A program made the translations under genes and the position numbers. A stretch of 64,000 nt of DNA, taken from the NCBI RefSeq assembly GCF_001677475.2, contig NZ_CP015229.1. One strand, 5' to 3'. The notes beneath the pieces were generated by a model. That model did no database searches, was not told the DNA's origin, and was given only the letters and a program-made list of their open reading frames with translations. Of this stretch, positions 48,193 to 48,497 are shown piece by piece. Positions within the stretch are counted from its first letter, which is position 1; every line of letters starts with the position of its first letter. This DNA comes from Escherichia coli (lineage in GTDB: Bacteria > Pseudomonadota > Gammaproteobacteria > Enterobacterales > Enterobacteriaceae).

Positions 48193-48210
48193 TGGTTTAT
48201 CGTTGGTTTA
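48193..48210 (+). promoter_or_regulatory. PhoP box (TGGTTTA-tcgtt-GGTTTA) of the mgtA promoter
   Basis: Direct hexamer repeat with 5-bp spacer, 12 bp upstream of a TATTAT -10 hexamer. Confidence 0.7.
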
Positions 48211-48235
48211 GTTGCCAGCAGGTATTATATCGCCA

Positions 48236-48497
48236 TAAATGCTACGAATATTATTGGATTCTCCTTATTATTTGCGGCGCTTTTTTCACTTACCGGAGGT
48301 TATATGGAACCTGATCCCACGCCTCTCCCTCGACGGAGATTAAAACTTTTCCGGTAAGCCCGTCTTTTCACGGCGTTACCGGATGCGTAAGGCCGTGACG
48401 TTTTAACGTCCCTGCTCAGCTTTATTTCCTTCAGGTAAGGCTTCGCCACGCCTGAAGACATTTCTGTACTGTTTCAGACAGTGCGGAGGGACTCCTT
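48236..48497 (+). promoter_or_regulatory. mgtA 5' leader (Mg2+-responsive regulatory leader RNA containing mgtL)
   Basis: About 260 nt between the inferred transcription start and the mgtA ATG; contains the proline-rich mgtL ORF. Confidence 0.65.
48304..48357 (+). CDS. mgtL: mgtA leader peptide MgtL ([17 protein letters not shown], 17 aa)
   Basis: Exact proline-rich leader peptide encoded within the mgtA leader. Confidence 0.85.

Follow-up and report, generated by a model that had tools for sequence, protein, structure and literature searches.

The region between positions 48193 and 48497 of the window, a 64,000-nucleotide stretch of Escherichia coli DNA, can be assigned with a probability of about 0.9 to the E. 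coli-type mgtA control region, namely, a PhoP-activated promoter followed by an attenuator controlled by mgtL and Mg2+. This region, which switches on the Mg2+ importer MgtA when Mg2+ is scarce, is already known and well studied, and it adds nothing new as a system. Magnesium control here is a layered textbook case, comprising a two-component activator, a leader peptide and an RNA switch that feeds a Rho-dependent terminator. Its one unusual feature is a single-base change, absent from all other sequences searched, which disrupts a short conserved RNA hairpin in the terminator half. The features are listed in Table 1.

Table 1. Features of the mgtA control region and its neighbouring genes (window positions)
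Feature	Position	Strand	Basis
treR, divergent gene upstream, bounds the control region	47172..48119	-	315-aa ORF
PhoP box, direct repeat GGTTTA-TCGTT-GGTTTA	48194..48210	+	read from sequence; overlaps the -35 position
-10 hexamer TATTAT	48223..48228	+	read from sequence; 12 bp downstream of PhoP box
Predicted transcription start (P1), within 1 nt	48235..48236	+	published numbering and spacing
mgtA leader RNA, ~262 nt	48236..48497	+	predicted +1 to mgtA ATG
Rfam RF01056, Mg2+-responsive element of mgtA, covers stem-loops A and B	48289..48404	+	covariance-model match
Stem-loop A, three-way junction enclosing all of mgtL (outer helix 48289-48299 / 48348-48358; inner hairpins 48305-07 / 48317-19 and 48324-28 / 48335-39)	48289..48358	+	Rfam structure line
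mgtL Shine-Dalgarno GGAGG, in the 5' strand of stem A	48295..48299	+	read from sequence
mgtL, 17 codons + stop (ATG 48304, TAA 48355-48357)	48304..48357	+	ORF translation
Stem-loop C, alternative ON conformer (48350-57 / 48376-83 and 48360-62 / 48371-73)	48350..48383	+	mutually exclusive with A and B
Pyrimidine-rich A-B linker CCCGTCTTTTC, candidate rut segment	48359..48369	+	composition
Stem-loop B, part of the high-Mg2+ OFF conformer (48370-79 / 48387-96)	48370..48396	+	Rfam structure line
Small conserved hairpin GACG / CGUC (hairpin P), directly after B	48397..48410	+	alignment of leaders, RNAalifold
Second pyrimidine-rich stretch, 3' of B, candidate rut segment	48408..48433	+	composition
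Pause hairpin, 5 bp (K-12 UUACC-UUCA-GGUAA, window UUUCC-UUCA-GGUAA)	48425..48438	+	in-register pair count
Private substitution A to T, middle pair of the pause hairpin	48427	+	comparison with K-12 and E. coli genomes
Later hairpin (48429-36 / 48450-57; inner GGC/GCC 48439-41 / 48445-47)	48429..48457	+	leader MFE
Pause / Rho-dependent termination site, ~+214	48449	+	K-12 Term-seq 3' end and Salmonella alignment
Terminal hairpin; 3' arm runs into the mgtA Shine-Dalgarno GGAGGG (48485-48490)	48464..48486	+	MFE
mgtA, Mg2+-importing P-type ATPase, 898 aa (ATG at 48498)	48498..51194	+	ORF

The product of treR matches the NCBIfam family TIGR02405 (TreR) with 591 bits against a cut-off of 357, and RefSeq genomes also annotate the gene as treR. 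MgtA exceeds the equivalog cut-off of TIGR01524 (1607.4 versus 610.75 bits), its residues 34-898 corresponding to positions 4-867 of the 867-position profile. In K-12 the P1 promoter, mgtL (b4702) and the leader upstream of mgtA (b4242) occupy the same locus with the same neighbours, treR upstream and ridA, pyrI and pyrB downstream. The gene order treR / mgtL / mgtA is annotated for the same DNA in 5,423 of 5,426 complete E. coli genomes in RefSeq. This annotation, together with the Rfam and TIGR01524 matches and the K-12 identity of mgtL and stem-loops A, B and C, bears out the identification of every part named in an earlier sequence-only reading of this DNA. Compared with the nearest E. coli genome, MgtA shows four amino-acid differences; of the 35 nucleotide differences, 30 affect the third base of a codon. 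This bias towards third bases and the integrity of every ORF led to the rejection of an artificially mutated window as an explanation.

No base differs from K-12 in the PhoP box, the -10 hexamer, mgtL or stem-loops A, B and C. Within 48193-48497 the two sequences differ at three single bases: C replaces the K-12 T at 48215, in the spacer between the box and the -10, and A replaces G at 48238, at about +3, both being common E. coli alleles, whereas the third change, from the K-12 A to T at 48427 in the pause hairpin, is private to the window. The sequence-only reading had described the full regulatory architecture as apparently intact, with alignment to the K-12 leader as the check. This description is borne out for the promoter, for mgtL and for the A/B/C switch and fails for the pause hairpin, where the third difference breaks the central pair of a covariation-supported structure.

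The PhoP box consists of two copies of GGTTTA (48194-48199 and 48205-48210) separated by TCGTT (48200-48204), lying in direct orientation on the mgtA strand. The -35 position (48200-48205) reads TCGTTG, a poor element with two of six matches to TTGACA, and a 12-bp spacer (48211-48222) leads to the -10; the earlier description of such a box replacing the -35 element 12 bp from TATTAT agrees with the sequence at every base. The window has a single exact copy of the direct repeat; simple arithmetic predicts about 0.008 exact 12-base matches per window, and shuffled sequences average 0.20 matches when one mismatch is allowed. Among 96 mgtL leaders of Enterobacteriaceae, a repeat resembling the PhoP box is found in 88, and in all 88 the distance to a TAnnnT -10 is exactly 12 nt. 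A chance match was rejected on the basis of this single exact occurrence, the scarcity of matches in shuffles and the retention of repeat and spacing in 88 of the 96 species. The promoter 57-mer of the window is identical in 1,117 E. coli genomes.

PhoP promoters of architecture I have one direct box located 11-12 nt from the -10 and a poor -35, and are activated in a class II manner in which the alpha-CTD is not needed; this architecture has been described for mgtA (Zwir 2012, PMC3335776). The window carries the corresponding single (T/G)GTTTA-N5-(T/G)GTTTA direct repeat, with 12-nt spacing and overlapping the poor -35. In Salmonella enterica the mgtA box with its flanks (TGGTTTATCGTTGGTTTAA) matches that of the window (TGGTTTATCGTTGGTTTAG) except for the final flanking base; the degenerate -35 TCGTTG, the 12-nt spacing and the 7 nt between the -10 and +1 are shared (PMC3335776), while the -10 is TATGAT in Salmonella and TATTAT in the window. 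Binding of phospho-PhoP and transcription dependent on PhoP and low Mg2+ have been reported for Salmonella and for the P1 promoter of E. coli (PMC3335776, PMC11552253). A consensus promoter scan found no stand-alone sigma-70 promoter in 48193-48497 or its surroundings (47900-48700), which is expected for an activator-dependent promoter without a -35 and is not evidence against a promoter. The E. coli leader numbering, in which nucleotides 152-163 are GUAAGGCCGUGA and which also includes C175 (PMC11552253), puts +1 at 48236 and gives a leader of 262 nt; the Salmonella rule of 7 nt between the -10 and +1 (PMC3335776) puts it at 48235 and gives 263 nt. Both values agree with the previous estimate of about 260 nt. 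Another hexamer resembling a -10 is conserved at 48266-48271 and might drive a second start.

The leader RNA has a predicted minimum free energy of -86.6 kcal/mol and a z-score of -4.51 relative to 200 shuffles. RNAalifold analysis of 96 leaders yielded 39 pairs, compensatory changes being present in 19, and independently recovered stem-loops A and B and the downstream hairpins. With 125.8 bits (E = 4.3e-26), the RF01056 match lies above the gathering score of 40; it covers model positions 1-115 of 115 and ends 94 nt upstream of the mgtA ORF matched by TIGR01524. In the 96 leaders the outer helix of stem A is paired at 96.3% and stem B at 98.1%, with seven of ten pairs of the latter changed on both sides in a compensatory manner. 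Hairpin P is paired at 98.7%, with compensatory changes in three of its four pairs. The 7-bp core of stem C is also paired at 96.3%, compared with 28-45% for controls in which the partner was slid. For whole conformers pairing reaches 90.8% for A+B versus 39-50% for the slid controls, and 87.3% for C versus 28-45%. Structure prediction for the alternative stem-loops, which had been suggested as a check, gave an energy of -38.9 kcal/mol for each of the two conformers. Two mutually exclusive folds of the leader, A+B and C, are backed by covariation, as is characteristic of the RF01056 element. The 3' strand of stem B is GUAAGGCCGU, and the next two bases, GA (48397-98), belong to hairpin P; replacement of nucleotides 152-163, which comprise this strand and the GA, abolishes the response of E. 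coli to cytoplasmic Mg2+ (PMC11552253).

The gene mgtL lies wholly within stem-loop A and has its own Shine-Dalgarno sequence, located 4 nt upstream of the ATG in columns that are invariant or nearly so in the 96 leaders. Its DNA is identical to K-12 b4702, annotated as the MgtL leader peptide, and its translation, starting with MEPDPTP, is the 17-aa peptide that had been placed before mgtA. Relatives were gathered by a DNA-pattern scan of genome contigs, and 97 of 99 matches in other Enterobacteriaceae encode peptides of 15-18 aa beginning with M(D/E)P(D/E)PTP. The N-terminus and the reading frame are kept in these 97 loci and the C-terminal half varies freely, which points to selection on the translation of the N-terminal codons. 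The Salmonella peptide (MDPEPTPLPRWRIFLFR) likewise differs from the MgtL of the window. Published views are divided as to whether Mg2+ is sensed by the RNA directly, via mgtL translation, or by both. The leader could act as a pure Mg2+-binding riboswitch, with mgtL dispensable for the decision; Rfam indeed classes the element as a magnesium riboswitch aptamer and, as summarised in PMC11552253, Mg2+-dependent folding alone is reportedly enough in vitro to modulate Rho termination in the Salmonella leader. This is unlikely, however, given the conservation of the MgtL N-terminus and frame. Moreover, for the identical K-12 peptide it has been shown that Mg2+-sensitive translation of the EPDP and proline codons sets mgtA read-through: the EPDP motif causes ribosome drop-off at low Mg2+, the E2Q/D4N mutant of mgtL abolishes mgtA expression, and EttA acts through MgtL synthesis (PMC11282234). 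Reviews now place mgtA under uORF-mediated control.

The Firmicutes M-box (ykoK), a Mg2+ riboswitch, is also a leader RNA through which expression of a Mg2+ transporter falls at high Mg2+; it uses an intrinsic terminator and no leader peptide. Its fold and family are unrelated to the mgtA leader, and an Rfam search reported no M-box match in 47000-52000 at E <= 1. The E. coli and Salmonella leader of corA, with its uORF corL, is alike in having a three-way junction around a short uORF, exclusive OFF (A+B) and ON (C+D) folds, rut sites on either side of stem B, and Rho-dependent attenuation that responds to Mg2+. Unlike mgtA, it is transcribed from a constitutive promoter without a PhoP box, CorL has only a single conserved proline, termination by Rho occurs at several sites, and what the leader governs is entry into the pause rather than its duration (PMC5314796).

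The mechanism proposed for the window has two tiers, for which PhoP binding, ribosome drop-off, Rho action and pausing are inferred from published K-12 and Salmonella work. At initiation, phospho-PhoP would bind the repeat at the place of the -35 and, as a class II activator, recruit RNA polymerase to TATTAT, so that transcription would start at about 48235/6 when periplasmic Mg2+ is low. During elongation, the 262-nt leader would decide whether the polymerase gets to mgtA. With ample cytoplasmic Mg2+, ribosomes would finish the 17 codons of mgtL and the RNA would keep stem-loops A and B; the pyrimidine-rich segments around B would then be exposed to Rho, the polymerase would pause at 48449 behind the small hairpin, and transcription would end. 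When Mg2+ or proline-tRNA is scarce, ribosomes would stall on, or drop off from, the N-terminal EPDP/proline codons. Stem-loop C would then form by pairing between the 3' strand of stem A and the 5' strand of stem B, hiding the Rho entry site and allowing the polymerase to read into mgtA. The basis for this scheme in the present analysis comprises sequence identity with K-12, family membership, conservation, covariation, equal predicted stability of the two folds and homology of the pause site.

The architecture outlined in the sequence-only reading ended at mgtL and omitted the terminator half, i.e. the pyrimidine-rich flanks, the pause hairpin and the site at 48449. The A-B linker contains 91% pyrimidines (5 C, 1 G) and the second stretch 77% (9 C, 3 G); both are candidate rut segments, the linker by analogy with the descriptions of Salmonella and corA. 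A terminator scan found no intrinsic terminator in the leader, its single match being on the minus strand inside treR. In Salmonella, where the mechanism has been worked out, the mgtA leader is 264 nt long, includes mgtL, is the source of RF01056 and shares the alternative A/B and C folds, although its DNA is only about 70% identical to that of the window. A canonical-type pause hairpin acts there at U218, and this hairpin-stabilised pause is the sole site of Rho termination (PMC5314796). The K-12 Term-seq 3' end at 4467576, which was flagged as Rho-dependent by comparison with and without bicyclomycin (PMC7815308 supplement), maps to 48449, in the column that aligns with Salmonella U218 (46 nt between U218 and the ATG). 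The pause consensus over the 96 leaders comprises G-10 (89/96), Y-1 (95/96) and G+1 (96/96), and the window has G at 48440, C at 48449 and G at 48450.

In both species the pause hairpin ends 11 nt before the Y-1/G+1 site, its arms being UUGCUC/GGGCAA in Salmonella and UUACC/GGUAA in E. coli K-12. The loop has 4 nt in E. coli and 5 nt in most species, shifting the 5' arm by one MAFFT column, so that the count by MAFFT columns (47.8% paired) is misleading and was replaced by one anchored on the 3' arm. Counted in this way, all five positions are paired in 56 of the 96 leaders and four of five in 31. The third pair is G.U in 34 leaders, G-C in 29 and A-U in 21, and U.U is found only in the window. 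The later hairpin, which has compensatory changes in four of its six pairs despite imperfect alignment, is a competitor of the pause hairpin whose formation has to wait until the polymerase is past the pause site. The K-12 3' end on the U218 homologue, together with the consensus and hairpin covariation in about 95 species of Enterobacteriaceae, supports the view that the Salmonella pause/termination module is present in E. coli as well, a point on which published data disagree.

Rho dependence of the mgtA leader has been firmly shown in Salmonella only, and the E. coli data conflict. The Term-seq result mentioned above contrasts with ChIP experiments on the Rho R66S mutant, in which the termination score of E. 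coli mgtA was 1.0, though RNA polymerase occupancy fell along the gene (PMC5499598). The premature ends of the E. coli leader might therefore be Rho-independent, generated by RNase processing or by pausing alone, in which case the Salmonella terminator model would not be transferable. A review marks the mechanism with 'may not be conserved in E. coli', and another 3' end, mapped to 48363 a little beyond stem-loop A, resembles exonucleolytic trimming or processing (PMC7815308 supplement). However, R66S may spare some terminators, as noted in the ChIP study itself (PMC5499598), the bicyclomycin comparison flags the end at 48449 as Rho-dependent, and E. coli and Salmonella share the pause site, its consensus and the pyrimidine-rich flanks. 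A Rho-independent origin of these ends appears improbable.

The private T at 48427 converts the central A-U pair of the pause hairpin to U.U. The energy of the hairpin changes from -3.4 kcal/mol in K-12 to +1.3 kcal/mol in the window with U.U left unpaired, and the probability of the core pair drops from 0.94 to 0.05; the ViennaRNA value of -2.3 kcal/mol obtained with U.U forced to pair is not meaningful, and the figure of +1.3 omits that pair. The position of a pause-stabilising hairpin about 11 nt upstream of the pause site and four of its five pairs are present, while by thermodynamic prediction the canonical hairpin is not expected to form in the window RNA. A weaker alternative hairpin of 8 bp (48420-27 / 48433-40, -2.0 kcal/mol) is possible in the window and might stand in for it. 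The T allele has no exact match among 5,347 E. coli genomes searched with the window 57-mer, and the corresponding K-12 57-mer with the A allele is exact in 5,189 of 5,419 genomes (96%). No metagenome contig stretch carries T, compared with 115 carrying A. It is also the sole allele in 48100-48560 seen neither in K-12 nor in the best-matching genome.

On these predictions, the most likely effect of the change is a shorter pause and somewhat leakier attenuation, although it may equally be silent. That it is without functional consequence, or represents a sequencing or assembly error, so that the architecture is functionally intact, has an even chance of being true. The source lineage differs from all complete E. 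coli genomes by about 2%, largely at silent sites, and lineage-specific changes are therefore expected. The pause hairpin is marginal even in K-12, and the 8-bp alternative is available. In Salmonella entry into the pause depends on the downstream DNA and stem-loop B also prolongs it (PMC5314796), and both are unchanged in the window. Against a neutral change or an error stand the isolation of this allele within 48100-48560, its absence from the genomes and metagenome contigs searched, the maintenance of complementarity at the affected pair, through A-U, G-C or G.U, across about 95 species, and the constancy of the surrounding 57-mer in 96% of E. coli genomes. A more specific proposal, which we regard as tentative and rather doubtful, is that T at 48427 is a natural regulatory variant in which, through the opening of the pause hairpin, the pause at 48449 is shortened and Rho-dependent attenuation loosened, giving more MgtA at high Mg2+ than in other E. 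coli. If true, magnesium homeostasis would have been altered by one base in a leader, and the variant would offer a natural test of whether pausing stabilised by a hairpin, as in Salmonella, also operates in E. coli. As a one-base natural mutation, it could serve as a ready allele for testing the pause module in this species.

Downstream of mgtA, the sub-threshold Rfam matches naRNA4, ES036 and mir-14 at 51248-51857 were rejected as a REP-like element and noise outside the feature. At the 3' end of the leader, the terminal hairpin was recovered by RNAalifold with strong covariation (columns 341-362).

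The region is the already known control region of mgtA, which encodes a Mg2+-importing P-type ATPase. The interval 48289-48404 matches the whole length of Rfam RF01056, the family of Mg2+-responsive elements in mgtA leaders, scoring 125.8 bits where the gathering cut-off is 40. In profile searches the MgtA ORF is an equivalog-level match to TIGR01524, Mg2+-translocating P-type ATPase (1607 bits), and the divergent upstream ORF matches the TreR family. The 461 bases round the locus (48100-48560) are present in 5,425 of 5,426 complete E. coli genomes, with the match covering at least 80% of the length in 5,423, and are annotated as treR, mgtL and mgtA among the matches listed; the 126-base core switch has at least 99% identity in 5,410 of 5,424 genomes. 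The PhoP box, 12-base spacer, TATTAT hexamer, 17-codon mgtL and mgtA all lie where the sequence-only reading had put them, as judged by the sequence and ORF translation. In E. coli GCU-H1 (NZ_CP178558.1) the match is limited to the first 138 nt of 48100-48560, on the treR side, so at this junction the promoter and leader of mgtA are either absent or interrupted. Three copies of the region sit on plasmid records. Immediately 3' of mgtA (51248-51320) is a REP-like palindromic element whose Rfam matches, to naRNA4 (34.3 bits, where 59.5 is the cut-off) and to ES036, stay below threshold.

Features of the mgtA control region (window positions)
Feature	Position	Description
treR	start 48119 (-)	315-codon ORF, opposite direction
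PhoP box half-sites GGTTTA	48194-48199 and 48205-48210	TCGTT between at 48200-48204; sequence read
Spacer	between PhoP box and -10	GTTGCCAGCAGG, 12 bases; sequence read
-10 TATTAT	48223-48228	sequence read
Stem-loop A	48289-48299 / 48348-48358 (outer helix)	three-way junction enclosing mgtL and its Shine-Dalgarno
mgtL Shine-Dalgarno GGAGG	48295-48299	upstream of ATG 48304
mgtL	ATG 48304, stop 48355-48357	17 codons; translated ORF
Stem-loop C	48350-57 / 48376-83	3' strand of A with 5' strand of B; alternative fold
Pyrimidine-rich stretches	48359-69 and 48408-33	
Stem-loop B	48370-48379 / 48387-48396	Rfam structure line
Small hairpin	48397-48410	
Pause hairpin	48425-48438	5 bp; UUACC-UUCA-GGUAA in K-12
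Pause/termination site	48449	eleven nucleotides after pause hairpin
mgtA	start 48498	898-codon ORF

The exact GGTTTA direct repeat occurs once in the 64 kb window, where simple arithmetic gives a chance expectation of about 0.008; shuffles with one mismatch tolerated yielded a mean of 0.20 matches per window. In Salmonella, work on the PhoP regulon places mgtA in "architecture I", with the -35 TCGTTG (four mismatches), 7 nt from -10 to +1, class II behaviour of the promoter and mgtA activation independent of the alpha C-terminal domain (PMC3335776). The window shares the degenerate -35 (48200-48205) and the spacing with this promoter, and its PhoP box is the same except for the last flanking base. 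A consensus scan of the promoter region found no stand-alone sigma-70 promoter, which fits activator dependence. A degenerate mgtL pattern, applied to one genome per species, gathered 99 loci, in 97 of which the peptide has 15-18 residues and the N-terminus M(D/E)P(D/E)PTP. Among the 96 loci with sufficient upstream DNA, a PhoP-box-like repeat followed by TAnnnT was found in 88, with a spacer of 12 nt in all 88. The transcription start is predicted at 48236 from the E. coli numbering, in which GUAAGGCCGUGA is nts 152-163 and a C is 175 (PMC11552253), or at 48235 from the Salmonella 7-nt rule. The window shares its promoter allele (C at 48215, A at 48238) exactly with 1,117 complete genomes.

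A degenerate third half-site, GGGTAA (48183-48188), lies 5 nt 5' of the first GGTTTA on the 11-bp period of the PhoP box, and the intervening AAAGTCT is kept in many species. A second TATTAT, the same as the -10 of the PhoP-dependent promoter, is located within the leader at 48266-48271 (about +31 to +36), where 69 of 96 Enterobacteriaceae leaders have a hexamer matching TATAAT at five or more of six positions. This hexamer might serve as the -10 of a second promoter, Zwir 2012 (PMC3335776) referring to a Salmonella mgtA start that requires Rob but not PhoP, or as a sigma-70-dependent pause element.

The elements of the leader switch were placed by transferring the structure line of the Rfam family to the window. 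In the alignment of 96 leaders, the A+B fold (OFF, high Mg2+) is 90.8% paired, against 39-50% with slid partners as controls, and the alternative C fold (ON) 87.3%, against 28-45%; seven of the ten pairs of stem-loop B have changes on both sides. RNAalifold without an imposed structure recovered A, B and the downstream hairpins, with 19 of 39 pairs compensatory, and the predicted fold of the whole leader is 4.5 standard deviations more stable than that of shuffled sequences. The two conformers of the window have equal predicted energies of -38.9 kcal/mol. Published E. coli experiments fit this switch: replacing the 3' strand of B abolished the response to internal Mg2+ (PMC11552253), the EPDP motif of MgtL makes ribosomes drop off when Mg2+ is low, and mgtA was shut off once the acidic residues of that motif were neutralised (PMC11282234).

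The architecture described by the sequence-only reading is correct as far as it goes, but it omits a conserved module downstream of stem-loop B, seen in the 96-leader alignment and made up of the pyrimidine-rich stretches, the small hairpin, the pause hairpin and the site 48449. Position 48449 is assigned as its pause and termination site because it corresponds to the K-12 Term-seq 3' end 4467576, flagged as Rho-dependent (PMC7815308), aligns with Salmonella U218, the sole Rho termination site of that mgtA leader (PMC5314796), and carries a conserved pause consensus (G-10 in 89, Y-1 in 95 and G+1 in all 96 leaders). In Salmonella, 46 nt separate U218 from the ATG in a leader of 264 nt. Since the MAFFT alignment is out of register at the pause hairpin, pairing was counted by a script that takes the 3' arm as its anchor: all five positions pair in 56 of 96 leaders and four in 31. 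At the third pair, 34 leaders have G.U, 29 G-C and 21 A-U, a clear covariation. A larger competing hairpin (48429-36 / 48450-57) can form only once the pause site is transcribed. A terminator scan of the leader found no intrinsic terminator.

Whether mgtA attenuation depends on Rho in E. coli is disputed. In a ChIP study with Rho R66S, mgtA scored 1.0 (PMC5499598), and a review flagged the mechanism as possibly not conserved in E. coli; the opposite result is the Rho-dependent call for the leader 3' end by Term-seq with bicyclomycin (PMC7815308). Binding of PhoP, drop-off of ribosomes, pausing and the action of Rho would be expected here from published work on the same or homologous sequences. 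A second K-12 Term-seq end, 4467490 (window 48363), lies 5 nt beyond the base of stem-loop A and may come from terminated leader transcripts after processing or exonuclease trimming. A covariation-supported hairpin (in 48464-48490) ends within the mgtA Shine-Dalgarno GGAGGG (48485-48490) and could add a layer of translational control; the nearest E. coli genome has one difference in its 3' arm, at 48483.

The claim that the control region is fully intact stands except at the pause hairpin. Compared with K-12 MG1655, the window has five differing positions in the 461 bases; mgtL and the whole RF01056 element are identical, but position 48427 is T instead of the A of K-12 and of all other E. coli sequences searched. 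This is the sole base of 48100-48560 not common to K-12 or the best-matching genome. The T turns the central A-U of the pause hairpin into U.U, which is absent from every other species of the 96-leader alignment. The predicted energy of the canonical hairpin changes from -3.4 to +1.3 kcal/mol and its core-pair probability in nascent RNA from 0.94 to 0.05, while a different, weaker 8-bp hairpin becomes possible (-2.0 kcal/mol, predicted). By likeness to Salmonella, the substitution would be expected to give a shorter pause and leakier attenuation. In Salmonella, though, entry into the pause hinges on the DNA downstream, and the pause is lengthened by stem-loop B as well (PMC5314796); both are unchanged in the window.

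None of 5,347 complete genomes contains the window's 57-mer centred on 48427 exactly, whereas the K-12 57-mer is exact in 5,189 of 5,419; in a metagenome collection the T allele had no match, against 115 for the A allele. The variant is private to this genome and is the only loose end of the region. The source is a real, somewhat divergent E. coli lineage: the 40-60 kb part of the window is about 98% identical to its closest counterpart among 5,426 complete genomes, the differences in 40000-60000 are evenly spread and mostly silent, and 30 of 35 in mgtA fall at third codon positions. This lineage appears to have no close relative among complete RefSeq E. coli genomes, and in such a divergent lineage a lineage-specific change at 48427 is unsurprising in itself. 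In the yjgL region (~56500-58000), identity to the nearest genome falls to 89-93%.
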